Source: Phyllobacteriaceae bacterium
Lineage (GTDB): Bacteria > Pseudomonadota > Alphaproteobacteria > Rhizobiales > Rhizobiaceae
Length of the DNA: 43,013 bases
Assembly (NCBI GenBank): GCA_024645155.1
Contig: JAHEGF010000002.1
Span: forward strand, 1-43,013
Direction of reading: 5' to 3'
Position 1 is the stretch's first letter. Each line of letters starts with the position of its first letter. A program made the translations under genes and the position numbers. Positions 4,843 through 43,013 of the stretch are shown in pieces. Below the pieces are notes generated by a model. That model saw only the letters and a list, made by a program, of their open reading frames with translations, ran no database searches and was not told where the DNA came from.

Positions 4843-5982
4843 TCAGTTGTCCCCCGCAACAGCACCGTCGACCGTCATTGATGACGGCTTCATGCTGGCA
4901 AACAGTGTTGAAACAGTGGGTCGCAACATGTGCTCCAGAGCACCGGCAAACAGGATCACCAGCCCCTGGATGATGACGATCATGTCGCGCGAAATGTTCG
5001 GCATTTCAAATGAAATTTCCGCACCGCCCTGATAGAGCATGCCGAACAGGATGGCGGCAGGAATGATGCCCGCGGGGTGCGAGCGGCCCATCAGCGCCAC
5101 GGCGATGCCAACAAATCCGGCACCGGTGACGAAATCGAGTTGCAGGCGGTGCTGGTCGCCCATGATCGGGTTGAGCGCCATCATGCCGGCAAGCGCTCCG
5201 GAGATCATCATGGTGATGACGATGATTTTCGCTTCGTTGATGCCGGCATATCGCGCCGCCTTGGGACTGAAGCCGAGTGTGCGGATCTCATAGCCGAGCT
5301 TGGTGCGCCAGACCAGCGCCCACACGACTGCCGAAGCCACGAGTGCCAGTAGGAAGGTAACATTGAGTGGTGTTGACCGTATCGAAGCGCCGAACAGTTC
5401 GAGCAGCCAGTCGAGCTTGGGAAGGTGACCACCTTCGAGGAACGTACGTGTTTGAGGTGCCATGGAGCCCTTCGGCTTCAGCGCTCCGACAAGCAGGTAG
5501 ACCATGACACTTGATGCAATAAAGTTGAACATGATCGTGGTGATGACAATGTGACTGCCACGCCTGGCCTGCAAATAGGCAGGAATGAAGGCCCATGCAG
5601 CGCCGATTGCCGCCGATCCGAGGATAGCTACCAGAAAAACGACAGGCCACGGCAGGAAGCTGTCGAGCATTAGGCAGGGAACGGCAACACCCAATCCGGC
5701 GATATATGCCTGACCTTCGCCGCCAATATTGAACAGGCCGCAGTGAAAGGCGACAGCTACCGCCAGTCCGGTGAAAATAAAATTGGTCGCATAAAACAGC
5801 GTATAGCCGACACCTTCGCCGGAACCGAATGCGCCCTTGACCATTAGCGTCGCGGCGTGAAGCGGGCTTTCACCGACAAGCAGCACAACCATCCCGGCCA
5901 CGATGAAAGCGACAAGAAGATTGATGAAGGGGATCAGACCGAAATCGACCCAAGCCGGTAGTTTTGCATAGGGTGTTGCCAT
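4843..5982 (-). CDS. ABC transporter permease (Bmp/nucleoside-type uptake system)
   Basis: 379-aa polytopic ORF. Its ATG overlaps the ATPase TAA stop (TAATG at 5982-5984). Confidence 0.8.
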   Translation of the reverse strand: MATPYAKLPAWVDFGLIPFINLLVAFIVAGMVVLLVGESPLHAATLMVKGAFGSGEGVGYTLFYATNFIFTGLAVAVAFHCGLFNIGGEGQAYIAGLGVAVPCLMLDSFLPWPVVFLVAILGSAAIGAAWAFIPAYLQARRGSHIVITTIMFNFIASSVMVYLLVGALKPKGSMAPQTRTFLEGGHLPKLDWLLELFGASIRSTPLNVTFLLALVASAVVWALVWRTKLGYEIRTLGFSPKAARYAGINEAKIIVITMMISGALAGMMALNPIMGDQHRLQLDFVTGAGFVGIAVALMGRSHPAGIIPAAILFGMLYQGGAEISFEMPNISRDMIVIIQGLVILFAGALEHMLRPTVSTLFASMKPSSMTVDGAVAGDN

Positions 5983-7514
5983 TATTCAGCAGCCTCCTGA
6001 CTTTCCACGCCTGCCATCAACAGGCCGAGTTCGCCCTCTGTTGCTTCCGGCGTACGTTCGCCGACCACGCGGCCGGCAAACATCACCAGAATCCGGTCGG
6101 AAAGCGAGCGGATTTCGTCAAGCTCGACAGATACCAGCAGGACCGCCTTGCCCTGATCACGCATTTCGATAATGCGTTTGTGGATGAATTCGATCGCACC
6201 GACATCGACACCGCGTGTCGGCTGGGCGACGACGAGGACTGAAGGGTCGCGTTCCATCTCGCGTGCCAGCACGATCTTCTGCTGGTTGCCTCCTGAGAAG
6301 TTGGCAGTTTTCAGGCGGCAATTGTCAGGCCGGATATCGTATTTGCCAATCTTGACGCGGGCATCGTCACGGATCGCATCCATGTCTAGAAACGGCCCGG
6401 ATATATAACGCTTGTCATCGTGATACCCGAGAATGGAATTCTCGTATTCCTCGAACGGCAGGACGAGACCCATATGATGGCGGTCCTCGGGAACGTGGGC
6501 CATACCGCGCCCGCGCAGTTCGTTAGGGTCGGCCGAACCGGTGACGCCGATTGGCTGGCCGTCAAGCAGGGCAGTGCCGGACAGGGCTTTGCGTATTCCG
6601 GTAATCGCCTCGATCAACTGGGACTGGCCGTTGCCCGCGACGCCGGCGATGCCGACAATCTCTCCGGCGCGCACGTTGAACGAGACATCATCGACCATGG
6701 TGACGCCGCGTGAATCGCGAACCGTCAGTCCTTCGACCGAAAGCATGACATCACCTGGATTGGCCTCGCCCTTCTCGACACGCAGCAGGACGCGGCGGCC
6801 AACCATCAGTTCGGCCAGTTCCTCGACTGTGGTTTCTGCGGTCTTGCGAGTGGCGACCATGGTGCCCTGGCGCATGACGGAGACATTGTCGGTCACCGCC
6901 ATGATTTCACGCAGCTTGTGGGTAATCAGGACGATGGTTTTGCCCTGTTCCTTCAACTGGCGAAGAATTCTGAACAGGTGGTTGGCTTCCGCAGGTGTCA
7001 GCACGCCGGTCGGTTCGTCAAGGATCAAGATTTCGGCGCCGCGATAAAGTGCCTTGAGAATTTCCACGCGCTGCTGCAGGCCGACTGGCAATTCCTCTAT
7101 GACTGCGTCGGGATCGACTTCGAGACCGTATTCCTTCTCCAGGCGGTCGAGTTCGGCGCGGGCATCGGAGATGCCGCCGGCAAGAAGCGCAGCATTCTCG
7201 GCGCCAAGCATGACATTTTCCAGCACAGTAAAATTTTCTACCAGCATGAAGTGCTGATGAACCATGCCGATGCCGAAAGCGATGGCGTCGTTGGGCGTGT
7301 GGATGGTTACTGTCTTGCCATCGATACGGATTTCACCGCTGTCGGCCTGGTAGAAGCCGTATAGGATCGACATCAGCGTTGACTTGCCCGCGCCGTTTTC
7401 GCCGATGATGCCGTGAATCGTTCCGCGCGGTACCTCCAAATGGATGTCACGGTTTGCATGGACGGCGCCGAAGCTCTTGTTGATGCCGATGAGTTCGATG
7501 GCCGTTTCAGACAT
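5982..7514 (-). CDS. ABC transporter ATP-binding protein with duplicated ATPase domains
   Basis: Walker A GENGAGKST, signature FSGGNQQK and Walker B ILILDEPT, plus a second degenerate half. The ATG at 7514 is preceded by a GGGAGGG RBS. The ORF-track start is at 7532. Confidence 0.85.
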   Translation of the reverse strand: MSETAIELIGINKSFGAVHANRDIHLEVPRGTIHGIIGENGAGKSTLMSILYGFYQADSGEIRIDGKTVTIHTPNDAIAFGIGMVHQHFMLVENFTVLENVMLGAENAALLAGGISDARAELDRLEKEYGLEVDPDAVIEELPVGLQQRVEILKALYRGAEILILDEPTGVLTPAEANHLFRILRQLKEQGKTIVLITHKLREIMAVTDNVSVMRQGTMVATRKTAETTVEELAELMVGRRVLLRVEKGEANPGDVMLSVEGLTVRDSRGVTMVDDVSFNVRAGEIVGIAGVAGNGQSQLIEAITGIRKALSGTALLDGQPIGVTGSADPNELRGRGMAHVPEDRHHMGLVLPFEEYENSILGYHDDKRYISGPFLDMDAIRDDARVKIGKYDIRPDNCRLKTANFSGGNQQKIVLAREMERDPSVLVVAQPTRGVDVGAIEFIHKRIIEMRDQGKAVLLVSVELDEIRSLSDRILVMFAGRVVGERTPEATEGELGLLMAGVESQEAAE

Positions 7515-13346: not shown

Positions 13347-13610
13347 ATGCTCCGTACTTCGCAGTCACCTGCCGAACCGACTTTGCTGCACATGGCGTTT
13401 GGCGGCGGGACACCTGTACGGGCGCTGGCGACAGCTGCGGTCGTTGGTACAGTGCTTACCGCGATAAACCATGGCGATGTTGTTGTTGCCGGTGATTTCC
13501 CGCCGTTCATCAAGGTTGTCCTGACCTATTGCGTGCCCTATTGCGTGACGACATGGGGTGCTATCATCGGCAAGCGTGCGCAATGGCGGCAAGATCAATC
13601 CATGCTGTAG
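13347..13610 (+). CDS. Small two-TM membrane protein, NrtS-like (putative nitrate/nitrite transporter family)
   Basis: The block AAVVGTVLTAINHGD....LTYCVPYCVTTWGA matches my memory of the NrtS family. The assignment is memory-based. An alternative start is the ATG at 13392. Confidence 0.5.
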   Translation: MLRTSQSPAEPTLLHMAFGGGTPVRALATAAVVGTVLTAINHGDVVVAGDFPPFIKVVLTYCVPYCVTTWGAIIGKRAQWRQDQSML

Positions 13611-13632
13611 CGCCCATCTGGGGGAGCCAGAC

Positions 13633-14934
13633 ATGCAGATTGAGGATTTTTTCAACAGGCAAAACATTATCGACCTGTCATTCTTCAATTTCGGCAATGC
13701 GATCACAGCGGCATATTTCGCTGATCACGACTTGCGCATTCTCAAGGTAAACGAGAATTTCAAGAAATTCTTTCCGGTTCTGGGGAATGTCACAAATGCC
13801 AGTTTTCCCGACGTGCTCGAGCAGATCGGAATGCCTGCGAAGCAGATTGCGTCATTCGTTACCGATCTTGAAACCAAGGGCTCCGTTCTGATACCGCAAT
13901 TGCAAATCCGCATTGACGGACAGGACCGTGTGTTTTCACTTCTGTCCACACGCACCGGTCACGATGCCTTTACATATCTAAACGGTGTGCAAGGGCAGTT
14001 TGTCGACCGAACCGAAGAGTGGACCTTGAGGCGTGAGCGAGAAGAGCTGGTAAAGCAGAAACTGCGTGATCGTGAACTGATCGAGGAAAAGAGCAGGCAA
14101 CTGGAGAATCTCGCGACACGGCTCGCGAAATATCTTTCGCCGCAGATTTACCAGAGCATTTTTTCCAATACCGAAGATGAGCGCCGGTCACCGACGCGCA
14201 AGAATTTGACGGTGTTCATGTCCGACATCGTGCAGTTTACGAACCTGACCGAAGCTCTCGATCCCGAACGCCTTGCCCTGATCATCAATTCCTACCTGTC
14301 GGAGATGGCGGCGGTTGCGCTTGATTGCGGCGGGACCATCGACAAGTTCATCGGTGATGCAGTGCTGGTGTTCTTCGGCGACCCGGAAAGCGAGGGCGAA
14401 ACAGAGGACGCCCTGAAATGTATCGAGATGGCGCTCCGCATGCGGTTGCGGATCGAGGAATTGCAGAAATACTGGCGCAAGCAGGGTGTCTCCGACGGAC
14501 TGTTCGTGCGCATGGGCATTTCAACGGGCTATTGCACGGTCGGCAATTTTGGTTCCGAACAATTGCTGGAGTATACCGCGCTTGGCCGTCCGGTGAACCT
14601 TGCCTCGCGTATCCAGGACCTTGCCGAGCCCGGAGCGATCGTCATCGACGACAGTACCAACACGCTGGTATCCGAGCACGTCGAAACGACGCCATTGCCT
14701 CCGCTAACACCGAAAGGTTTTTCTCGCCCGGTTCCGGTTTTTGCCGTCAGCGACTTCAAGTCCGACGAACATCGTGAAAACCGCCAACGGCTGTCACGCA
14801 CCGGCGAACACGTTGAAGTCAACGTCATCAACAGTTCCAACATTCGCGCTGCCATTGAAGAACTGCTGCGTATCCAGCAGGATTTCGAGAAACAATATTC
14901 CGGCGTGCAATCACGGGATACCGGCGACAGCTAG
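13633..14934 (+). CDS. Sensor class III adenylate/guanylate cyclase with N-terminal PAS-like domain and coiled coil
   Basis: Cyclase motifs FMSDIVQFT, DKFIGDA, FFGDPES, GYCTVGNFGS and VNLASR. The ATG at 13633 is preceded by GGGGAG. The ORF-track start at 13558 overlaps the upstream gene. Confidence 0.85.
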   Translation: MQIEDFFNRQNIIDLSFFNFGNAITAAYFADHDLRILKVNENFKKFFPVLGNVTNASFPDVLEQIGMPAKQIASFVTDLETKGSVLIPQLQIRIDGQDRVFSLLSTRTGHDAFTYLNGVQGQFVDRTEEWTLRREREELVKQKLRDRELIEEKSRQLENLATRLAKYLSPQIYQSIFSNTEDERRSPTRKNLTVFMSDIVQFTNLTEALDPERLALIINSYLSEMAAVALDCGGTIDKFIGDAVLVFFGDPESEGETEDALKCIEMALRMRLRIEELQKYWRKQGVSDGLFVRMGISTGYCTVGNFGSEQLLEYTALGRPVNLASRIQDLAEPGAIVIDDSTNTLVSEHVETTPLPPLTPKGFSRPVPVFAVSDFKSDEHRENRQRLSRTGEHVEVNVINSSNIRAAIEELLRIQQDFEKQYSGVQSRDTGDS

Positions 14935-15003: not shown

Positions 15004-16434
15004 TCAGCGCTCAAGTTTTGCCAGTGCACTCCTGAGCGCGTTCTTCGTTTTGCGCCAATCCGCGTGTTCCGTGTGGATTGATATGATCACGCCTTCGTCT
15101 TCGTGGTGGAAATAACCTTCATCGCGGTCAATATCATCGAGTGTACCGATAACCTGAAAGACCCTGATTGGCTGCGAAAACCCTTTCATCGCGACGGCTT
15201 CCTGTTCCTGTGCAAACAACCAATCCTTTACCAATGAGTAGGTCTCGGCAGACATCAGGATACCGCCTGGCTCGGCGTGCGATTCCAGTCTTGCAGCAAG
15301 ATTCACCTCATGCCCGATGATGGTGTAATCCATCCGGTCCTGGCTGCCGAAGTTTCCCACGGTGCAGTAGCCGGTATTGATCCCCATTCGCGCCAGAAAC
15401 GGGCGATCGATCCATCCGGCATCCTGCCAGACTGCCTGTAGCTGATGCAGCCGCTCCTGCATTGCCAGCGCCATGCGAACACACGCTTCGGCGTCTTCTT
15501 TCACGCCGGGACTTTCGGGGTCGCCAAAAAAGCACATGATTGCATCGCCTATGAACTTGTCGAAAGTGGCTCCGTATTCTTCGGCAATTGCAGACATCTC
15601 CCGGAGGTATTCGTTGAGCAGTGCCGTCAGTTCCTCTGACTCCAGCTGTTCGGTTATTTGTGCAAAGCCGACGATGTCAGAAAAGAATATTGTCAGTTTT
15701 TTCCGCTTTGACTCAATGGCCACATTTTTTTCGTCATCGATAATCGACTGGTAAAGTTGCGGTGGAACATATTTTGCCAGTTGGTGAGATATGTTTTCGA
15801 CAACGGTTTTGGAGTTGCGGAGTTCGTTGACCAGACGGGTATTGTCGATGGCGATCACGGCCTGCGCAGCGAATGTCCGTAATACCGATAGCTGTGCTTT
15901 TGTCAGCGGCCCCGGAGTCTGCCGAATTACTCCAAGCACGCCGATTGCCTTGCCGTCGCGCAGCATCGGCATCATCGTCACGGCGCGGTAACCACTGAGC
16001 AGGAAATTCTTCGCCCCCGTACTGTTCCTGCTGGGGGAGTTGGCTACATCCGGAATATCGATTTCGGTTCCTTCCAAAATGGCCATGCCGTGCATGTATT
16101 CGCGATTTAGCGGAAACGGGAAGCGCCTGCGCCAGGCATCGGCCCGTATCGGGTCCTCATCGGCAACGGCAACGGCGTCAACGATGTCGCCCATCGGCAG
16201 AGCCACACTGATTGCGGCACCTGGAAACAATTTCGAACCGCTGCGAACTATCGCATCGAAGACCGGTTGTGTATCACTTGGGGAACTGCTGATGACATGA
16301 AGAATTTCATTTGTTGCAGATTGGCGATCAAGCGCTTCGCGCAGTTCGCGTTTTACCATATCCAGTTCGGCACCGGGTTCAGAGCCACCGCCGCTGTGGT
16401 CAGTTTTCGCACGCTTTTTCCGGTCTCGGGTCAT
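15004..16434 (-). CDS. Sensor class III adenylate/guanylate cyclase with N-terminal GAF-like domain
   Basis: Cyclase motifs FFSDIVGFA, DKFIGDA, FFGDPES, GYCTVGNFGS and VNLAARL. The N-terminal block QSATNEILHVISSSPSDTQPVFDAIV is typical of GAF sensor modules. The ATG at 16434 is preceded by GGAGGTG. The ORF extends to 16572. Confidence 0.85.
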   Translation of the reverse strand: MTRDRKKRAKTDHSGGGSEPGAELDMVKRELREALDRQSATNEILHVISSSPSDTQPVFDAIVRSGSKLFPGAAISVALPMGDIVDAVAVADEDPIRADAWRRRFPFPLNREYMHGMAILEGTEIDIPDVANSPSRNSTGAKNFLLSGYRAVTMMPMLRDGKAIGVLGVIRQTPGPLTKAQLSVLRTFAAQAVIAIDNTRLVNELRNSKTVVENISHQLAKYVPPQLYQSIIDDEKNVAIESKRKKLTIFFSDIVGFAQITEQLESEELTALLNEYLREMSAIAEEYGATFDKFIGDAIMCFFGDPESPGVKEDAEACVRMALAMQERLHQLQAVWQDAGWIDRPFLARMGINTGYCTVGNFGSQDRMDYTIIGHEVNLAARLESHAEPGGILMSAETYSLVKDWLFAQEQEAVAMKGFSQPIRVFQVIGTLDDIDRDEGYFHHEDEGVIISIHTEHADWRKTKNALRSALAKLER

Positions 16435-16662
16435 GTCACCTCCGGCGTCATCCTTCACCTTTCCATATTTTCGGGATGCTTCCAAATGACCGCAAAGCTT
16501 CTGATCAAGCGTCCATTTGGCCGCAACTGTTTTCGGCAGGTGAAATTTCATCACGAATATGCTGACTGCCATCTGATGGATGGTAGTTGCAGTCCAAACT
16601 GCCGTTCAAGAACCGTCACCCGAACTTCCCAGTCCGGAGCCTGCGTTACCGTGCATGTCTTG

Positions 16663-30673: not shown

Positions 30674-31657
30674 TCAGGCATTGCCAATCAGCATTCCGGC
30701 GGCAAACACCAGTGAGCCACCCAGCACCACCTGGAAAATCGCCCGGCTCCAGGGTGTTTCCATATAACGGTTCTGGATCCAGACGATGGCCCACAGTTCA
30801 ATGAAAACGACAACGAATGCGATGACAGTCGCAGTCCAAAAGTCGGGGATCAGGTAGGGGAGGGCGTGACCGAGACCTCCTACAGTGGTCATGATACCGG
30901 TCGCCAGACCGCGCTTTATGGGTGAACCCCTGCCCGATATCACACCGTCATCAGATGCAACTTCCGTAAATCCCATCGAAATTCCCGCGCCGATTGATGC
31001 CGCCAGACCGACGAGAAATGTTGTCCACGTATTATGCGTTGCAAAGGCGGTGGCGAAGATCGGTGCGAGTGTCGAAACGGATCCATCCATCAGCCCTGCC
31101 AGTCCGGGCTGGACATAGGTCAGGATAAATTGCTTGCGCTCGGTTTCCTCTTCTTCTTCGCGCACGTCCTCGGGCGTATGCCTGGCTTCAAGATCGAGAG
31201 CCTTTTTTTCGTGGCCACTTTCGGCAATCGCCAGTTCGCCGAGCAGCTTGCGGGTGTCGGCATCGTGTGAACGCTGTGCGGCGGCAACATAGAAACGGTG
31301 CGCCTGCCGCTCCATCTCGGCGGCCTGGGCCCGGGCCTTTTCAATACCCAACGGACGCACCAGCCAATCGGGCTTCCGTTCGTAGTATCCGCGGACATGT
31401 TCACGGCGGATCAACGGAATGTGGTCGCCAAAGCGTTTCTTGTGCAAATCAATCAGGATCGCACGGTGGTGTGTTTCCTCCTTGGCCATGTCCTCGAATA
31501 TTTTTGCAGATTGCGGAAACTCGTCGCGCAGCCCGTCGGCATAGGCAAGATAAATCCGGGAATCATCCTCTTCCGCCGATATGGCCAGCGCGAGGATCTC
31601 CTGTTCGGAAAGCGAGTCAAAGGACCGGCGTCCGCCGTTGAAGAAGCGGCTAATCAA
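30674..31657 (-). CDS. mbfA: Membrane-bound ferritin-like / VIT1-CCC1 iron exporter
   Basis: N-terminal ferritin-like (erythrin) domain with EExxH motifs (AKEETHH, AESGHE) fused to a C-terminal VIT1-type membrane domain. This is the architecture of MbfA in Bradyrhizobium and Agrobacterium. Confidence 0.85.
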   Translation of the reverse strand: MISRFFNGGRRSFDSLSEQEILALAISAEEDDSRIYLAYADGLRDEFPQSAKIFEDMAKEETHHRAILIDLHKKRFGDHIPLIRREHVRGYYERKPDWLVRPLGIEKARAQAAEMERQAHRFYVAAAQRSHDADTRKLLGELAIAESGHEKKALDLEARHTPEDVREEEEETERKQFILTYVQPGLAGLMDGSVSTLAPIFATAFATHNTWTTFLVGLAASIGAGISMGFTEVASDDGVISGRGSPIKRGLATGIMTTVGGLGHALPYLIPDFWTATVIAFVVVFIELWAIVWIQNRYMETPWSRAIFQVVLGGSLVFAAGMLIGNA

Positions 31658-37078: not shown

Positions 37079-37627
37079 CTAACCCCGGGTTTCAGAAATG
37101 GATTCGGCGGTGCCATGTGCCTCCAGATGCGCTTTGATCACCTTGAGACCGTTCGCAAGATTGCGTTTCCAGTCGAGTGTTACAAACAGCTGTAACAGGG
37201 GACGGGCAATGGCATTGCGGGGATGAAATCCATAGTCCCAAACGATCCGGCAATTGCCGCCTTCCGGGACTGCCTGCATAGTTGATACCGCGTAATCGGA
37301 CAGCAGGCGAACCGGGCTGGTGTAGGCCCAGGGCTGGTATCTGTAGGATGCGGGCAGGTTGGTTTCAAGTATCCGTTCAAGTGATGTCGTTCCGTCCTTG
37401 AAGAAGATCTTGCGGCAGGCTCCAGCCTTGCCCCATTCTGGCCCGGAGACAGGCTCGGTACCTGTAATCGGCGGAACGATGAGTGTGCCGAGCATAAAGT
37501 TCTCAATCGGCTCGAACATGTACCAGTCGAAAAATGTTTTGGCCGGAATGGCGATTACGGTCTCGACCCTGCACCTGGCGTAATTTTCGTCGTGGGTGTC
37601 GGGATCCGGTGGCGATGAATGCTTCAT
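37079..37627 (-). CDS. SRPBCC (START/Bet v1-like) fold protein, a putative hydrophobic-ligand binder
   Basis: 182 aa. The alternating beta/long C-terminal helix pattern and length fit SRPBCC/polyketide-cyclase-like proteins. The call is from memory. No RBS is visible before the ATG. Confidence 0.55.
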   Translation of the reverse strand: MKHSSPPDPDTHDENYARCRVETVIAIPAKTFFDWYMFEPIENFMLGTLIVPPITGTEPVSGPEWGKAGACRKIFFKDGTTSLERILETNLPASYRYQPWAYTSPVRLLSDYAVSTMQAVPEGGNCRIVWDYGFHPRNAIARPLLQLFVTLDWKRNLANGLKVIKAHLEAHGTAESISETRG

Positions 37628-37691
37628 GTTTTTATACTTGGCAGATATTACATATTGTGAAAATGCCGGACGAATGTGCGCCTGACGGCAC

Positions 37692-40079
37692 TTACACGGC
37701 TTTTTTCAGTTCCTGGATTTCAGGCGCCGAAGCAATTTGCTTGTCGGCAATAAAGCTCTTGAGCAGATAAGCGGCGACCGCGGTCTGATCCATCGGTTTG
37801 GAGAAAAAGAACCCCTGCAACTGGTTGCACGCGATTTCGCTGAGAAACTTGGCCTGTTCCGGCGTTTCCACGCCTTCCGCTGTGACGGTCATCTGCAGTG
37901 TCTGGCCAAGCGATGCTATGGTTCTCAGAATATCTTGAGCGACGAGGTCTTCGGAAGATGCCATGACAAAGGACCGGTCGATCTTGATCTTGTCGAAGGG
38001 GAACTTCAACAGATATGACAGGCTCGAATAGCCGGTACCGAAATCATCAAGCGCGATGTTTACGCCGATTTTCTTGAGGCCCGAAAGGCGATCACGGACT
38101 TCCTCCTGATTTTTGATCAGCAGGCTTTCAGTCACCTCTATTTCGAGGCAATGAGCGGGCAGTCCGCTTTCCTTCAGTGCCGATGATACAGTTTCAACGA
38201 TGTCGGATGACTGAAAGTGCCTTGCAGACAGATTGACCGCGACAGTAAGGTCCTCCGTCCAAGTTGCGGCAATGCGGCAGGCCTCGCGCACCGTCCAATC
38301 GCCGATCTCACATATCATGCCACCCAGTTCGGCGATCGGGATGAATTCCGAAGGCGTAACGATGCCGCGAATCGGATGGTTCCAACGTATCAGCGCCTCA
38401 AAGCCCATCGGTTTTTGGCTGTCGGCGCCAATCAAAGGCTGGAAGTACAGCTCCAGTTCGCCGTTTTCCAGTGCCTTGCGCAATTCGGATTCGAGCATCC
38501 GCTTTTCGCGCAGATCGGTGTCCATCCGCGATTCAAAGAAGCAATGCAGACCGCGGCCTTCAGCCTTGGCGCGGTAAAGCGCCAAATCCGCATTTCGCAA
38601 AAGCTGATCGGGACGCGTACCGTTGATCGGTGCAATGGCAATACCAATACTGATGCCTATCAGGACCGTTTCGCCGTCGATTTCATAAGGTTTGCTGACT
38701 TCCGCAATCAATCTCTTTGCTATTTTTTCCAGCTCTTCGGCGGTCGCATCGTCCTGGATAATGATGGCGAACTCGTCCCCGCCAAGGCGGGCGATATTTT
38801 CCGTTCCGCGTAATGTCGTGCGTATCCTCTTGGCCACGGCACTCAGCAAGCTGTCGCCAACCAGGTGCCCGCGTGTATCGTTGACAGATTTGAAGTTGTC
38901 GAGATCCATATACAATACCGCAAACGGTGAGCCGTAGCGCTCCAGTCTTGCGACACAATGCTTGAGGTGTTCGGTGAATTTTGCACGGTTTAATAGACCG
39001 GTAAGCGGATCATTGTGCGCAAGGAAACTGATTTGGCGCTCGGCAAATTTCTTCGCCGTGATGTCTGATGCGGTGCCGACGTATCCGCGGTAAGACCCGC
39101 TTTCTGAATATATCGGCTTGCCGGTCAGCCGCCACCATTGTTCCTGGTCCCCAACGAGAACCCGGATCTCGAGGTCCTTGAATGTCTTCTGGTCTTCGAT
39201 CGAGAACCTGATTTCTTCAAGTGAAGAGTTGTTTCGGCCTGCAATGGTTGCCAGAAATTCGATAAAATCCTGCCCTTCGAGCGACGCGTCGGAGTGGGTG
39301 ACGCTTGCAAACCGGTCGGATACGCGGTCGATTTTTCCCTCGGAATCGAATTCCCAAAGCCAGTCGCTGGCGTTTTCCTCGAATTCCTTCAGCAGCAGCC
39401 CGATGATATCCCGCTGCGAGCGTACGGTTGCTTCCTGCTTAAAATTGCTGACGAAATCAAAGGACCTGCGGACCGATTCCGTGAAAATGATCACCGAGAA
39501 GCATGCAAGAAGCGAAAGAGCAGCGATGGTGTCTGTCATGCTCGGCAAGGCATATGCTGCAAATATTCCGCCAGCTATCGTAGGGAGCAGAAACGCGATC
39601 AACGCCTGAGGCAATATGGTCAGCATAAATCCGGTGACACAGATGATACCGGTATATTCGACTGCGCCAATCATACGGATCGAGGCTGTTGCCTGTGGCA
39701 TCACCAGTATCGGCATCAATCCCCAGAAAAGGCCGAAAATAAGGGAGTTGGCGATCAGTTTGTTCAACCGGTCAGGTGTCGCTGAACGGTGAACCGGCAG
39801 TTTGCGCCTGTCCAGCCAAACAACCAGCCTGCAAACCGCGAAAAAGTTCAACGCGCCGGCCCACAGCACGATCATGTTGAAATTTTCCATATCCACACAA
39901 ATTGCCAGCAATATCAACGTTATAGCGATATTGCCCAATGCCAATGCCGGAGTGGCGTCAGATACCGCCGAAATCTGCTTTGCATATAATACCGAAAGCA
40001 TATCATCATCGACTCTGTCGAGTGCGTCCGATGGAGCCGCAATTGCAGTATCAGCGTTTTTTTCTGGTTCCGGATGCAT
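37692..40079 (-). CDS. Membrane sensor (about 6 TM) - PAS - GGDEF - EAL protein (c-di-GMP turnover)
   Basis: About six hydrophobic helices in the first ~205 aa, then a PAS-like segment. Intact GGDEF (RLGGDEFAIII), and EAL motifs EALIRW, DDFGTGYSSLSYL and KIDRSF. An AGGAAG RBS precedes the start. Confidence 0.9.
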   Translation of the reverse strand: MHPEPEKNADTAIAAPSDALDRVDDDMLSVLYAKQISAVSDATPALALGNIAITLILLAICVDMENFNMIVLWAGALNFFAVCRLVVWLDRRKLPVHRSATPDRLNKLIANSLIFGLFWGLMPILVMPQATASIRMIGAVEYTGIICVTGFMLTILPQALIAFLLPTIAGGIFAAYALPSMTDTIAALSLLACFSVIIFTESVRRSFDFVSNFKQEATVRSQRDIIGLLLKEFEENASDWLWEFDSEGKIDRVSDRFASVTHSDASLEGQDFIEFLATIAGRNNSSLEEIRFSIEDQKTFKDLEIRVLVGDQEQWWRLTGKPIYSESGSYRGYVGTASDITAKKFAERQISFLAHNDPLTGLLNRAKFTEHLKHCVARLERYGSPFAVLYMDLDNFKSVNDTRGHLVGDSLLSAVAKRIRTTLRGTENIARLGGDEFAIIIQDDATAEELEKIAKRLIAEVSKPYEIDGETVLIGISIGIAIAPINGTRPDQLLRNADLALYRAKAEGRGLHCFFESRMDTDLREKRMLESELRKALENGELELYFQPLIGADSQKPMGFEALIRWNHPIRGIVTPSEFIPIAELGGMICEIGDWTVREACRIAATWTEDLTVAVNLSARHFQSSDIVETVSSALKESGLPAHCLEIEVTESLLIKNQEEVRDRLSGLKKIGVNIALDDFGTGYSSLSYLLKFPFDKIKIDRSFVMASSEDLVAQDILRTIASLGQTLQMTVTAEGVETPEQAKFLSEIACNQLQGFFFSKPMDQTAVAAYLLKSFIADKQIASAPEIQELKKAV

Positions 40080-40120
40080 GTAACCAACTTCCTGCTTATT
40101 TACCTGACAGGTTAGTGGCA

Positions 40121-40142
40121 GTTTATGGATTTGAGGTTTATG
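40121..40142 (+). repeat. Direct repeat GTTTATG x2 (40121-40127 and 40136-40142, 15-bp period) in the AT-rich divergent control region
   Basis: Read directly. Confidence 0.3.
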
Positions 40143-40335
40143 AAAAGCGCCTGATGCCGGATCAACCGCGGTATCTCTGTGTTTGGTAACTGAAGTATGA
40201 ATTGCGTGCTCTTGTGCTGTTGAAATTTTTTCCTTGAAGATGCCAGGTTATCGATGTGTAAACCTAATCGTTTAAAAACATTTTCAGACATCGCTGATAA
40301 CCATGCTCCAAACAAAAAACATACAGGAGCAGGTA

Positions 40336-41718
40336 ATGAGCAGGAACAAGGCAACAGGACATTCTGATGGCAATGACATACCAGAAGCCGCATTAACCGG
40401 AAGTCTTCGTGACTTCCGTGCCCCAACGGGTACAGACCTGCTTGGCCGCACAGAGGGTTTTTTCAAATGGCAGGACCTTCGCCGTAAAAACGGCCTGTGG
40501 CCTTACACGCGCTCTACTGCTACCGCCCCGAAATCGCACTGCACCGCAAAAAGCGATGCCGGTGAAAACATGCATGGCGTCAATTTTGCCTCGCAAGACT
40601 ATCTCAGCCTGTCCTCGCACCCTGAAATAAAGCAGGCTGCAATGGAGGCGATTGAAGAATATGGCGTTCACAGTGCCGGGTCAGCCGTGCTGCTGGGGAA
40701 TACGCGTCATTCGCTGAGACTTGAAAGAACGATATCGGAATTCATCGGCGGCCACGACGTCGTACTTTATCCGTCCGGCTGGTCAGCGGGCTTTGCAGCC
40801 GTTCAAGGGTTTGTTCGTCCGAATGACCACGTTGTCCTGGATGTCCTGGCACACTCCTGCCTTCAGGAAGGTGCCCGCGCGGCAACCCAGAACATCTATT
40901 TTCATGGCCACCTCAATGTTGATGGGTTGCGCAGACGGTTGCAGCGGATCAGGGCAAATGACAAGGAGAACGGCATTCTGGTGGTAACGGAAAGCCTGTT
41001 TTCGATGCATGCCGATACGCCGGATATTGCCGCTCTGCGTGAAGCCTGCGATGAATTCGACGCGAAATTGCTGGTCGATTGCGCCCATGATTTCGGTTGC
41101 ATCGGTGAGGATGGTCTTGGCCATATCGGGCTGCAAGGGATGATGGACAAAGTCGACATCATCATTGGCAGTTTCTCGAAAACCTTCGCTTCGAATGGCG
41201 GCTTTATCGCGATCAAATCGCGCGGTGTAGCCGAGTATCTGAAATGTTACAGCGCGACACATACATTTTCGAACGCATTGTCGCCGGCGCAGGCGGCGTC
41301 GGTTCTTGCCGCATTCAAGATCGTGATGTCAGCGGAAGGTGCGGAGCGCCGGCGCGCCCTGATGGACAATATTCTTTACATGCGCAGTGAGTTTGCGAAA
41401 TACGACATGGAAGCATTGGGTGACCCGTCGCCGATTGTACCGGTGCGGATCGGAGCCGAAGGCCTCGCCCGCATAGCTTCACGCGAGCTGGTCAAGCTGA
41501 ACGCCATTGTAAATCTCGTCGAATATCCGGCAGTTCCGCAAGGCGGTGCGCGATTCCGGATTCAGGCCATGGCGGATCACAGCCGCGGCGATGTCGATGA
41601 ACTGGTGGCAGCGACGCGAAAGGCAATGAAGATGGCGGATCTCGAATTCCGTATCATCCGTGAAAGCGGCAGCCTTTCACCGCAGAAAACAATTGGCGGG
41701 AACCGGCAGGCTGCCTAA
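40336..41718 (+). CDS. PLP-dependent alpha-oxoamine synthase family enzyme (BioF/Kbl/Spt/CqsA superfamily; possibly CqsA/LqsA-like)
   Basis: NFASQDYLSLSSHP, SGWSAGF, LAHSCLQEGAR, VDCAHDFG and the PLP-lysine context GSFSKTFASNGGF. The ATG at 40336 is preceded by CAGGAGCAGG. About 90 aa of N-terminal sequence precede the conserved core. Confidence 0.85.
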   Translation: MSRNKATGHSDGNDIPEAALTGSLRDFRAPTGTDLLGRTEGFFKWQDLRRKNGLWPYTRSTATAPKSHCTAKSDAGENMHGVNFASQDYLSLSSHPEIKQAAMEAIEEYGVHSAGSAVLLGNTRHSLRLERTISEFIGGHDVVLYPSGWSAGFAAVQGFVRPNDHVVLDVLAHSCLQEGARAATQNIYFHGHLNVDGLRRRLQRIRANDKENGILVVTESLFSMHADTPDIAALREACDEFDAKLLVDCAHDFGCIGEDGLGHIGLQGMMDKVDIIIGSFSKTFASNGGFIAIKSRGVAEYLKCYSATHTFSNALSPAQAASVLAAFKIVMSAEGAERRRALMDNILYMRSEFAKYDMEALGDPSPIVPVRIGAEGLARIASRELVKLNAIVNLVEYPAVPQGGARFRIQAMADHSRGDVDELVAATRKAMKMADLEFRIIRESGSLSPQKTIGGNRQAA

Positions 41719-41742
41719 TTGCCGATAGCAGGGAAACAGAAA

Positions 41743-42141
41743 ATGACATATGACCGGATACCCAGGCTCCTGGCAGTCGATGACGACCCGGATTCTGCGG
41801 AGCTCATCGTCCGTGTGGCGGAACGGTGCGGATATGAAGCATTTGCAACTTCGGATTCCCGAGGCGTCGTTAGCCTGACCAAGGCCCTTGATCCCGATAT
41901 CCTGACCGTCGACATCTGCATGCCGAACATAGACGCCGTTGAGCTGTTTCATCTTTTGAGCGAAGCAGGAATCAACGCCCAGATCCTGATCGTCAGTGGC
42001 CAGGACGAAACAGTGCTTGAAGATACCCGCCAGATAGCGCTGAAACTGGGCCTTAAAGTTCCCTACACTCAACAAAAACCGCTGGATTTCCAGCGGTTAA
42101 GGGAGATGTTCGTAGCGCCTGAAGTTCAGGCGGCGTGCTGA
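41743..42141 (+). CDS. Stand-alone receiver-domain response regulator (CheY-like, no output domain)
   Basis: Acidic pocket LLAVDDD, phospho-acceptor context ILTVDICMP, conserved Ser (IVSGQ) and Lys (QQKP). 132 aa. The ATG is 24 nt after the synthase stop, with an AGGGA RBS. Confidence 0.85.
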   Translation: MTYDRIPRLLAVDDDPDSAELIVRVAERCGYEAFATSDSRGVVSLTKALDPDILTVDICMPNIDAVELFHLLSEAGINAQILIVSGQDETVLEDTRQIALKLGLKVPYTQQKPLDFQRLREMFVAPEVQAAC

Positions 42142-42152
42142 TGGAATAGTAA

Positions 42153-42182
42153 CGGCTGGCCGATGTTGAAAATCGCCAGCCG
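42153..42182. terminator. 11-bp hairpin with one bulge (CGGCTGGC(C)GAT - 7 nt - ATCGCCAGCCG) between the convergent receiver and porin genes
   Basis: Read directly. It sits 11 nt after the receiver stop and 8 nt after the porin stop. It has no strong U-tract. Confidence 0.5.
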
Positions 42183-42190
42183 TGGTCAAT

Positions 42191-42796
42191 CTAGAATTTT
42201 ACACCGACCCTCATGGTCAAGGTGTCGATCCCCGCATCAATCAGGGTACCGTCAAAAGTATCGTAGAACTGGTGGCTGTAATTTGCCCCGACGGTGAGGT
42301 AATCGTTGACCATGTAGTCGACACCGGCACCTGCAACGATGCCCCAGTCATCAAGGCCGATGCTGGTCGTCGCGTAAACGGCACCGAGATGGGCAGTTGC
42401 CAGCCATTGATCATATGCAACACCCGCCTTTGCCTTCATCATGTAGGCATCTTCGGTATCGATCGGGAATCCCTCGAAGTTTATTTTCTGGCGCTGGTAT
42501 TCAGCTTCGACTCCGCCGACAAACATGCCGTACTGGTATAAATAACCGGCATAGACACCGAAGACAAAATCGTCTCCCTTTGACCGCAACGGAGGAACAA
42601 AGGACCGGTCGACATCGCGAAGCCAGCCGTAACCGCCTGACACGCCGACATAGGCACCAGTCCAGCTTCCAAATCTTTCGGGATTTGGTGCTTCGTATTC
42701 GGGAGCTTCATCGGCACGTATTATCGCGGGATCAGCTGCAAGCGCCGGTGAAACAAACAGTACCGAGGCGCATAAAATTGCTCCGATTTTTCCCAT
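42191..42796 (-). CDS. Outer-membrane beta-barrel protein (Omp25/Omp31/RopB-like porin family)
   Basis: Signal peptide MGKIGAILCASVLFVSPALA, alternating aromatic/Gly-rich strands (GAYVGVSGGYGW) and a C-terminal ...MRVGVKF ending in Phe. An AGGAGA RBS precedes the ATG at 42796. Confidence 0.8.
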   Translation of the reverse strand: MGKIGAILCASVLFVSPALAADPAIIRADEAPEYEAPNPERFGSWTGAYVGVSGGYGWLRDVDRSFVPPLRSKGDDFVFGVYAGYLYQYGMFVGGVEAEYQRQKINFEGFPIDTEDAYMMKAKAGVAYDQWLATAHLGAVYATTSIGLDDWGIVAGAGVDYMVNDYLTVGANYSHQFYDTFDGTLIDAGIDTLTMRVGVKF

Positions 42797-43013
42797 TTTG
42801 TTATTCTCCTGGATCAATGTACAGGAGGAATTTACCGAGTTATGGTTATCCAACGGTTAATAAGGATGAGATTGTTAACCATGATACTTAAGTCGGAGAC
42901 TGAGGCGGAAATCGGTGTCAGCGCCATGATCTTATTTGCTTCACGACAATTTGGGCAATGCGTGGCCAAACCAGGCACGCCACGATCCGTCATTGACAGC
43001 TAGAATGTCGTAT

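Follow-up and report, generated by a model that had tools for sequence, protein, structure and literature searches.

Near the right end of a 43,013-nt stretch of DNA from a Phyllobacteriaceae bacterium (GenBank assembly GCA_024645155.1, contig JAHEGF010000002.1, positions 1 to 43,013; hereafter the window), a gene for a pyridoxal phosphate (PLP)-dependent alpha-oxoamine synthase (AOS) is followed by a gene for a receiver-only response regulator (REC) and lies divergent from a gene for a PAS-GGDEF-EAL membrane protein. We find that these genes belong to a module whose most constant other members, a hybrid histidine kinase and a second single-domain receiver, are absent from the window. The module is conserved in many alphaproteobacteria of soil and sea. 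Dozens of genomes, drawn from several families, show the same gene set around their synthase, which places the arrangement far beyond chance. We put at about even the chance that the module is a hydrophobic-signal system resembling CqsA/CqsS or Lqs, built from non-orthologous parts and with cyclic di-GMP (c-di-GMP) added, of which the window holds an incomplete copy.

Conservation of the gene neighborhood

Relatives of the synthase were collected in a scan of one genome per species, which yielded 569 relatives, and the best 80 loci were analyzed by tblastn and clustering of open reading frames (ORFs). Partner genes are counted as present among evaluable loci, that is, loci with enough flanking DNA. 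A hybrid histidine kinase of ~640 aa was found near the synthase in 62 of 65 loci and a second single-domain receiver in 65 of 71; these are the most constant partners, and both are convergent to the synthase–REC pair. REC itself lies downstream of the synthase in 54/73 loci and an orthologue of the divergent PAS-GGDEF-EAL protein is present in 53/66, with both of these genes in 42 loci, neither in 11, and one alone in 7. An Omp25-like barrel accompanies the synthase in 24 of 49 loci, and in 19 of the 30 whose synthase shares 70% identity or more with that of the window. Neighborhood conservation had been named as a check in the initial annotation of this DNA, a reading from the sequence that proposed a small-molecule signaling locus, and the synthase–receiver pair and the divergent PAS-GGDEF-EAL gene are indeed conserved across Hyphomicrobiales. 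Genes beyond the module vary by lineage and are of the housekeeping kind (OpgGH, acyl-CoA dehydrogenase, UxuA, ABC permeases). No gene for an Hpt protein or an acyl carrier protein (ACP) is linked to the module in the related loci, and no bio, tdh or hem genes adjoin the synthase.

The linkage is also seen from the side of the kinase. A search of JGI metagenomes with the aligned kinase membrane domain as query yielded 344 relatives, the best 80 of which were examined; the synthase is convergent to the kinase within 3.5 kb in 27 of the 30 evaluable metagenome loci. The adjacency of synthase and kinase survives rearrangement, as same-strand, upstream and inverted orders also occur.

Cultured strains that carry the module are found in Devosia, Nitratireductor, Neomesorhizobium, Roseitalea, Oceaniradius and Pseudorhodobacter. 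In Pseudorhodobacter turbinis (Rhodobacterales), the 1.58-Mb chromid NZ_CP039965 carries on one strand a cassette in the order OMP_b-brl, AOS, histidine kinase, receiver (locus L164, 4673–13667). The synthase of this cassette is 53% identical to that of the window, and the kinase has the same membrane domain (37–39% identity) and is not hybrid. Transposase genes of the IS110, rve and DDE types bracket the cassette at either end; given these flanking insertion sequences (ISs), the module may be mobile. A distant subgroup from soil, with synthases 53–60% identical, keeps the kinase, two receivers and the synthase and has no GGDEF-EAL gene. It possesses two extra kinases, one of them with the same membrane sensor domain, and a FadL/TodX hydrophobic-compound channel is encoded beside the kinases in at least 11 loci, with a short-chain dehydrogenase gene adjoining in 4. 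This version is found in locus L125 (1903–11034) and in similar form in L126–L131, L136, L151, L155, L159 and L161.

Some genomes contain two synthase modules: loci L001 and L008 are ~36 kb apart on one contig of a metagenome-assembled genome (MAG), L004 and L005 both come from Neomesorhizobium albiziae, and L013 and L017 from one MAG. In a two-module MAG, one copy is of a core type that lacks both GGDEF-EAL and REC, and its counterpart belongs to the extended type. Such genomes may run parallel channels, and a kinase-less copy could borrow the kinase of the other. In Devosia algicola (NZ_CP118246, locus L057), the GGDEF-EAL gene (~5444–7434) matches in three abutting or slightly overlapping pieces, and the kinase is split into a 401-aa ORF and a 243-aa "hypothetical protein" (P0132) that holds the membrane domain only; judging from these broken reading frames, this strain appears to be losing the module.

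Identity of the synthase

The synthase gene occupies positions 40336–41718 on the plus strand (ORF 40303–41718), with the start placed at Met12, position 40336, by alignment with 13 homologues, and encodes 460 aa. The protein matches Pfam Aminotran_1_2 (PF00155) with 118.9 bits. Residues His184, Asp259, His262 and Lys293 (numbered by the first row of the family alignment) and the C-terminal motif PAVPQGGARFR are invariant in the family alignment with 13 homologues, and the PLP lysine, the D-x-x-H motif, the stacking histidine and the C-terminal arginine motif together assign the protein, by sequence, to the class II aminotransferase-like alpha-oxoamine synthase superfamily of PLP fold type I.

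Within this superfamily, the synthase falls well short of every NCBIfam equivalog cut-off tried. It scores 260.6 bits against BioF (TIGR00858, cut-off 426.45), 231.9 and 195.1 against the Kbl models NF005394 and TIGR01822 (cut-offs 460 and 493), 183.2 against 5-aminolevulinate synthase (ALAS; TIGR01821, cut-off 338.55), 225.3, 205.7 and 142.1 against the serine palmitoyltransferase (SPT) models NF047600, NF047599 and NF047603 (cut-offs 640, 500 and 670), and 176.6 against the CqsA-type model NF005526 (cut-off 428). On these scores, the synthase is to be placed in a clade of its own, outside the BioF, Kbl, ALAS/HemA, SPT and CqsA families. Classification by profile hidden Markov models (HMMs) had been suggested in the initial annotation as a way to expose an ordinary BioF, Kbl or HemA enzyme, and it sets the protein apart from all three. 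Among solved structures, the profile of the synthase family scores highest with SPT (201 bits; entries 3a2b and 8guh), followed by BioF (187), KBL (182), cysteate acyltransferase (159), ALAS (155) and CqsA (122). The lysine motif GSFSKTFASNGGF of the window synthase also resembles the SPT motif. An AlphaFold model of the synthase was poor, with a predicted local distance difference test (pLDDT) score of 48.

Close homologues of ~460 aa come from members of Rhizobiaceae, Phyllobacteriaceae, Devosia and Hyphomicrobiaceae. Identity to the window protein is 68–99% among the 120 best database matches and 66–79% within the clade across Hyphomicrobiales families; public annotation names these homologues "7-keto-8-aminopelargonate synthetase-like" or "glycine C-acetyltransferase". 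Below the clade, a search of 1.8 billion representative proteins reveals a continuum, with the 53%-identity subgroup followed by multidomain proteins at 41–51% identity. In this nearest outgroup, the synthase domains (41–51% identity, 350–460 bits) are fused according to Pfam behind a fatty-acyl-AMP ligase (FAAL), with or without an acyl-CoA dehydrogenase, and an ACP. Further outgroup fusions are FAD-monooxygenase–AOS, ACP–AOS–FeeM (N-acyl amino acid synthase) and AOS followed by a cyclic-nucleotide-binding domain. By Rosetta-stone logic, the FAAL- and ACP-fused outgroup suggests that ancestors of the clade used activated fatty acids, which makes a long-chain alpha-amino-ketone the likeliest product. 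The acyl-derived amino-ketone proposed in the initial annotation fits this outgroup. Other homologues, of 41–47% identity, reside on plasmids. One is an FAD-monooxygenase–AOS fusion on a Kitasatospora plasmid (locus L163, 6675–9290), one of 46% identity lies behind a LuxR-family regulator on a Salipiger plasmid (L162, 6792–9287), and one without annotation lies on the S. clavuligerus megaplasmid pSCL4 (L165, 8001–9257).

The C-terminus of the synthase (41704–41718) is a variable tail ending in Ala-Ala. In orthologues, a terminal AA is found in 57 of 68 and VA in 4 more, on tails that are otherwise hypervariable, and a terminal xA is retained in the distant subgroup of 53–60% identity. AA-type ends are typical ClpXP recognition signals in alphaproteobacteria, and regulated turnover of the synthase by a ClpXP-type protease is a reasonable prediction from the conserved tail.

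The sensor kinase of the related loci

The kinase that adjoins the synthase in the related loci consists of ~200 N-terminal residues followed by HisKA, HATPase_c and a receiver, with a linker of ~40 residues between HATPase_c and the receiver and a His-to-Asp spacing of 306–322 residues. The N-terminal membrane domain matches no Pfam or NCBIfam family and has ~59 invariant positions among 8 diverse members. In an AlphaFold model (pLDDT 90), the domain is predicted to form six membrane helices and an N-terminal amphipathic helix, with helix 6 continuous towards the DHp domain. Foldseek found no significant match to the model in PDB copies that do not include the CqsS structures such as 9WXL (best E-value 0.23, TM-score ≤0.33), and a database search with the domain gave only matches internal to the family, mostly truncated and none named CqsS. 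As modeled, the kinase looks like a receptor.

The PAS-GGDEF-EAL protein and the first receiver

The PAS-GGDEF-EAL protein of the window (37692–40079, minus strand, 795 aa), divergent from the synthase, matches Pfam PAS_4, GGDEF (162.6 bits) and EAL (242.4 bits). The motifs GGDEF433, EALIR561, NLS, EVTE, DDFGTG, KID, EGVE and QGFFF are present, including the full EAL catalytic set, and the I-site reads RxxE as opposed to RxxD in most orthologues. Hydropathy shows N-terminal hydrophobic stretches at residues 44–88, 106–128 and 136–205, from which six membrane helices are plausible; this N-terminal part matches no known family. This six-helix domain had been put forward in the initial annotation as the membrane receptor of the signal. 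Its median identity to orthologues is 26% compared with 70% for the synthase and 61% for REC, a search with the N-terminal 240 residues found no match among 5.8 billion proteins, and a profile–profile comparison detected no relation to the kinase membrane domain (probability 0.6%). On these three counts, the domain is a poor candidate for the primary co-conserved receptor, and that part of the proposal is not supported.

REC (41743–42141, plus strand; ORF 41719–42141) has 132 aa, and its sole domain is a Pfam Response_reg match (PF00072) of 51.3 bits. Conservation across 41 orthologues covers the acidic pocket DDD, the phospho-acceptor Asp within TVDICMP, and the Ser and Lys residues. REC was considered as a CpdR or DivK protein and rejected, as it scores far below the cut-offs (32.6 bits versus 180 for CpdR); no NCBIfam equivalog, that of CtrA included, is reached. 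The C-terminus is AA or VA in 28 of 40 orthologues, and the REC of the window ends in AAC.

The outer-membrane protein and the SRPBCC protein

An Omp25/Omp31-like outer-membrane beta-barrel (OMP; Pfam OMP_b-brl) is encoded at 42191–42796 on the minus strand (ORF 42191–42853), with 201 aa counted from the ATG that is probably its start, at 42796. The initial annotation regarded this gene as possibly unrelated. Its recurrence in about half of the evaluable loci, its homologue divergent from the kinase in many metagenome loci, and its position as the first gene of the Pseudorhodobacter cassette indicate instead that it is a frequent member of the module. In the distant soil group a FadL barrel takes its place. 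That unrelated barrels of two kinds fill the outer-membrane slot, according to lineage, is consistent with a hydrophobic molecule that has to cross the outer membrane.

The conclusion is the reverse for the SRPBCC gene (37079–37627, minus strand), which had been proposed as a possible chaperone of the signal. It matches Pfam Polyketide_cyc2 with 30.5 bits at a cut-off of 27.4, over residues 78–169 only, and has no NCBIfam match and no solved relative by sequence. The gene is present in 0 of 62 evaluable related loci and, judged by this count, is a lineage-specific neighbor and not a member of the conserved module.

Organization and composition of the locus

The five genes, their domains and the spacings described in the initial annotation agree with the ORF coordinates and the Pfam matches. 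The ATG of REC (41743) follows the synthase stop (41718) after a gap of 24 nt, and the SRPBCC start (37627) follows the stop of the GGDEF-EAL gene (37692) after a gap of 64 nt, in which no terminator is predicted. The divergent intergenic region (40080–40335) is AT-rich, as had been noted, with 40.6% G+C compared with 56.3% in the whole window. It presumably contains the promoters of both operons; no match to the sigma-70 consensus promoter was found inside it, and no motif is shared across 45 orthologous divergent intergenic regions. A strong hairpin at 42152–42183, between the convergent REC and OMP genes, is a candidate two-way terminator. It has a 12-bp stem with one bulge and a fold energy of -22.5 kcal/mol (z = -3.75; 0 of 200 shuffles fold equally well), and no T-run follows it on either strand.

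The locus has 53.0% G+C compared with 56.8% in the remaining window, and the G+C content at third codon positions (GC3) of its genes resembles that of neighboring genes. The hand counts in the initial annotation (34/60 and 33/60 G+C in two coding lines) are exact, and its statement on transfer agrees with these values, which give no clear sign of a recent event; recent horizontal transfer into the window was considered and rejected, as the composition is unremarkable.

The remaining window contains ordinary chromosomal genes. Two class III adenylate/guanylate cyclase genes, convergently oriented, adjoin each other at 13558–14934 (plus strand) and 15004–16572 (minus strand); one product has a GAF domain and the other is soluble, with an unassigned N-terminal half of ~210 residues. 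The cyclase at 13558–14934 was considered as a six-helix-anchored enzyme and rejected, as it has no hydrophobic segments. A rubrerythrin–VIT1 fusion of the iron-transport family (30674–31657, minus strand), which is unrelated to the module, adjoins a TRAP transporter operon.

Absence of the kinase and the second receiver from the window

Neither a kinase of the conserved type nor a second receiver is encoded anywhere in the 43-kb window. The initial annotation remarked on the missing kinase and suggested an output through c-di-GMP in place of a phosphorelay. This holds for the window and fails for the relatives, in which the kinase and the second receiver are the near-constant partners and the GGDEF-EAL protein is an addition. 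In the window, the very next gene after REC is OMP, on the other strand, and 217 nt separate its start from the end of the window. The order in close relatives is REC (plus strand), second receiver (minus), kinase (minus) and OMP (plus), and an inversion of the block from second receiver to OMP would yield the order of the window, with the kinase just past the edge. Translation of the last 230 nt reveals no recognizable kinase start, and sensitive blastn against 160 loci finds no homologous intergenic DNA in them. An exact-protein look-up with OMP and an exact 30-mer scan of metagenome contigs gave no match, and an exact-protein match to REC was found only on a 949-nt contig; none of the public contigs covered extends the sequence past position 43013. 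In a related MAG (locus L041), GGDEF-EAL, synthase and REC likewise occur without a kinase within 8 kb. Both missing genes may be encoded past the right end of the window or at another place in the genome, or they may have been lost; since some genomes carry two modules and L041 is also kinase-less, a location elsewhere in this genome is equally possible.

Proposed mechanism and alternative explanations

What we infer from this anatomy, domain content and linkage concerns the product, its diffusibility, its sensing and the transfer of phosphoryl groups, and may be outlined as follows. The full module would comprise six genes, for the OMP barrel, the PAS-GGDEF-EAL protein, the synthase, the co-transcribed REC, the convergent second receiver and the six-helix hybrid kinase. 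The synthase would condense an amino acid with a fatty acyl thioester to a hydrophobic alpha-amino-ketone, possibly converted onward to a hydroxy-ketone. The product would partition into membranes, with the barrel aiding its passage across the outer membrane, and would be detected by the conserved membrane domain of the hybrid kinase, from which phosphoryl groups would pass to the single-domain receivers. Where the module takes its Hyphomicrobiales form, REC and the PAS-GGDEF-EAL protein would convert the signal into a change in c-di-GMP, and a ClpXP-type protease acting on the C-terminal Ala-Ala would set the level of the synthase. We speculate, with a confidence that falls somewhat below even, that the module represents an unrecognized family of cell-to-cell signaling systems in Alphaproteobacteria and some soil bacteria, which would use a long-chain amino- or hydroxy-ketone, a new six-helix sensor on histidine kinases and a dedicated barrel of the Omp25-like or FadL type, with c-di-GMP wiring in Hyphomicrobiales and control by a ClpXP-type protease.

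Several observations weigh against this reading. The synthase is nearer in sequence to bacterial SPT, BioF and KBL than to CqsA (201, 187 and 182 versus 122 bits), and the nearness to SPT makes a role in membrane lipids possible. Its identity of 66–79% across families exceeds what we would expect of quorum-sensing synthases. The kinase of the related loci has no Rec-like domain of the CqsS kind (spacing of 306–322 versus 423 residues), and neither an Hpt protein nor a DNA-binding output gene is linked in these loci. To our knowledge, Omp25-like eight-stranded barrels are not known channels. Finally, the kinase is absent here, and the system may be non-functional or wired differently in this genome.

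Part of this evidence would suit a circuit of envelope-lipid homeostasis, in which the long-chain amino-ketone does not leave the membranes of the producing cell, where it would be a sphingoid-base-like or aminolipid precursor, and the membrane kinase and the GGDEF-EAL protein respond to the composition of the membrane or to stress and adjust the synthase (by proteolysis through the AA tail), the barrel and c-di-GMP. We consider this explanation unlikely, though serious enough to be kept in view. SPT is among the best solved and HMM relatives of the synthase, the FAAL and ACP fusions of the outgroup point to long-chain lipid products, an outer-membrane protein is among the members of the module, the sensors of the kinase and of the GGDEF-EAL protein are built almost entirely of membrane helices joined by short loops, and the high sequence conservation is as for a structural pathway. 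However, the SPT equivalog models are missed widely, and the Hyphomicrobiales loci show no linked gene for an ACP, a reductase, a ceramide synthase or any other part of a lipid pathway. The module is patchy, sometimes duplicated, and IS-flanked in Pseudorhodobacter, which is the behavior of accessory genes, and the FadL uptake channel of the distant group suggests transit across the outer membrane. The absence of a conserved-type kinase from the 43-kb window and from the 8 kb around the L041 genes would also be accommodated if this genome used a kinase-free version, with the six-helix domain of the GGDEF-EAL protein as receptor, the SRPBCC protein as chaperone and c-di-GMP as the sole output. 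The co-occurrence of GGDEF-EAL with REC, and the position of the SRPBCC gene, which follows GGDEF-EAL after 64 nt free of predicted terminators, are consistent with such a scheme. We nevertheless find it quite improbable, as the SRPBCC gene occurs in none of the 62 related loci, a cognate binding site should be better conserved than a domain with 26% identity beside a synthase with ~70%, and that domain has no similarity to the sensor domain of the kinase. Moreover, the distant subgroup and Pseudorhodobacter keep the kinase without GGDEF-EAL, and the existence of two-module genomes implies that the kinase may be encoded elsewhere.

The very tight adjacency of synthase and kinase, together with a degron-like AA tail conserved on the synthase and frequent on REC, could also mean that the synthase exerts its effect chiefly through protein contact with the kinase or the receivers, independently of a diffusible product and with its level set by proteolysis. 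A precedent exists in CqsA, which is reported to bind the cytosolic part of CqsS and to inhibit the kinase without needing catalysis (PMC13174287). By analogy with CqsA such a role is conceivable but highly improbable, because the invariant catalytic residues indicate that catalysis is under selection and the linked barrels, FadL and dehydrogenase argue for a small molecule. As to a chance neighborhood, in which an ordinary BioF, Kbl or HemA paralogue happens to lie among signaling genes, the public annotation of homologues as BioF- or Kbl-like speaks for it. We regard it as scarcely credible, since the synthase reaches none of the equivalog cut-offs and has no bio, tdh or hem gene beside it, and the linkage is kept in both search directions, across orders and through rearrangements, so that the neighborhood statistics effectively refute it.

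Implications

Acyl-homoserine lactones dominate the known quorum sensing of alphaproteobacteria. If the module is a cell-to-cell signaling system as proposed above, Hyphomicrobiales, Rhodobacterales and soil bacteria would have a second chemical language, made with a non-orthologous synthase and read by a new membrane sensor domain. It would contribute a further class of signal and a receptor fold, and perhaps also a step of uptake through the outer membrane. The direct tie to c-di-GMP would, from general knowledge of c-di-GMP, probably concern the choice between attached and motile life. If the product is an envelope lipid instead, the module would be a new membrane-homeostasis circuit. The module is compact, widespread and present in cultured strains, and these ideas are therefore directly testable.

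Comparison with known systems

Literature searches found no paper that describes the synthase–kinase module, and the likenesses to characterized systems are partial. Among enzymes, the best solved relatives of the synthase belong to the long-chain alpha-oxoamine synthases, a group with SPT and cysteate acyltransferase, and the outgroup fusions imply fatty acyl donors for the clade as well. Unlike SPT, the synthase misses the three NCBIfam SPT models and has two-component and c-di-GMP genes linked to it in place of sphingolipid-pathway genes. The uncharacterized FAAL–ACP–AOS and FAD-monooxygenase–AOS enzymes are the nearest outgroup of the clade, whereas the window synthase is a stand-alone protein inside a signaling cluster, with no linked carrier or ligase gene. 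The AA end of the synthase and the AA or VA end of many REC proteins are shared with ClpXP substrates such as CtrA and ssrA-type tagged proteins. The linkage of a receiver-only protein with a c-di-GMP enzyme recalls the adaptor logic of CpdR and PopA, although REC differs from CpdR in its score (32.6 bits versus 180) and, in the window, in its AAC end.

The module resembles the Vibrio CqsA/CqsS system, which uses CAI-1, in that an AOS-family enzyme adjoins a hybrid histidine kinase in the related loci and the expected signal is hydrophobic and acyl-derived. V. harveyi CqsS has six membrane helices followed by DHp, CA, a Rec-like domain and a receiver (PMC13174287); compared with CqsS by this description, the kinase of the related loci likewise joins six predicted helices to DHp, CA and a C-terminal receiver. 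The Rec-like domain is the difference, and the distance from H190 to D613 in CqsS is 423 residues (PMC13174287). The synthase, in turn, fails the CqsA-type cut-off of NF005526 (177 versus 428 bits) and is nearer to SPT, BioF and KBL. The module has no linked LuxU or LuxO-type partners, is hosted by alphaproteobacteria, and adds single-domain receivers, a GGDEF-EAL enzyme and an outer-membrane barrel; the window copy, unlike its relatives, also has no adjoining six-helix sensor kinase. With a synthase that fails the CqsA/LqsA cut-off and a kinase without the Rec-like feature of CqsS, the module is, on sequence grounds, not classed as a Cqs or Lqs system.

The LqsR protein of Legionella carries an output domain besides its receiver, in contrast to the receiver-only REC of 132 aa. 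Other differences from Lqs are the hybrid form of the kinase in the related loci, the GGDEF-EAL gene inside the cluster and the synthase itself, which is not an LqsA orthologue (NF005526 cut-off missed). The distant soil subgroup, with its two paralogous sensor kinases, is reminiscent of LqsS and the orphan LqsT in LAI-1 signaling. A 2012 review describes alpha-hydroxyketone signaling as confined to some gamma- and betaproteobacteria (PMC3376566). The Legionella order is lqsA-lqsR-hdeD followed by the convergent lqsS (PMC3376566), and the relatives of the window locus show the same succession of a synthase, a receiver protein and then a convergent sensor kinase, so that the analogy with Lqs, which the initial annotation drew from the order of synthase and receiver, is closer than was claimed.

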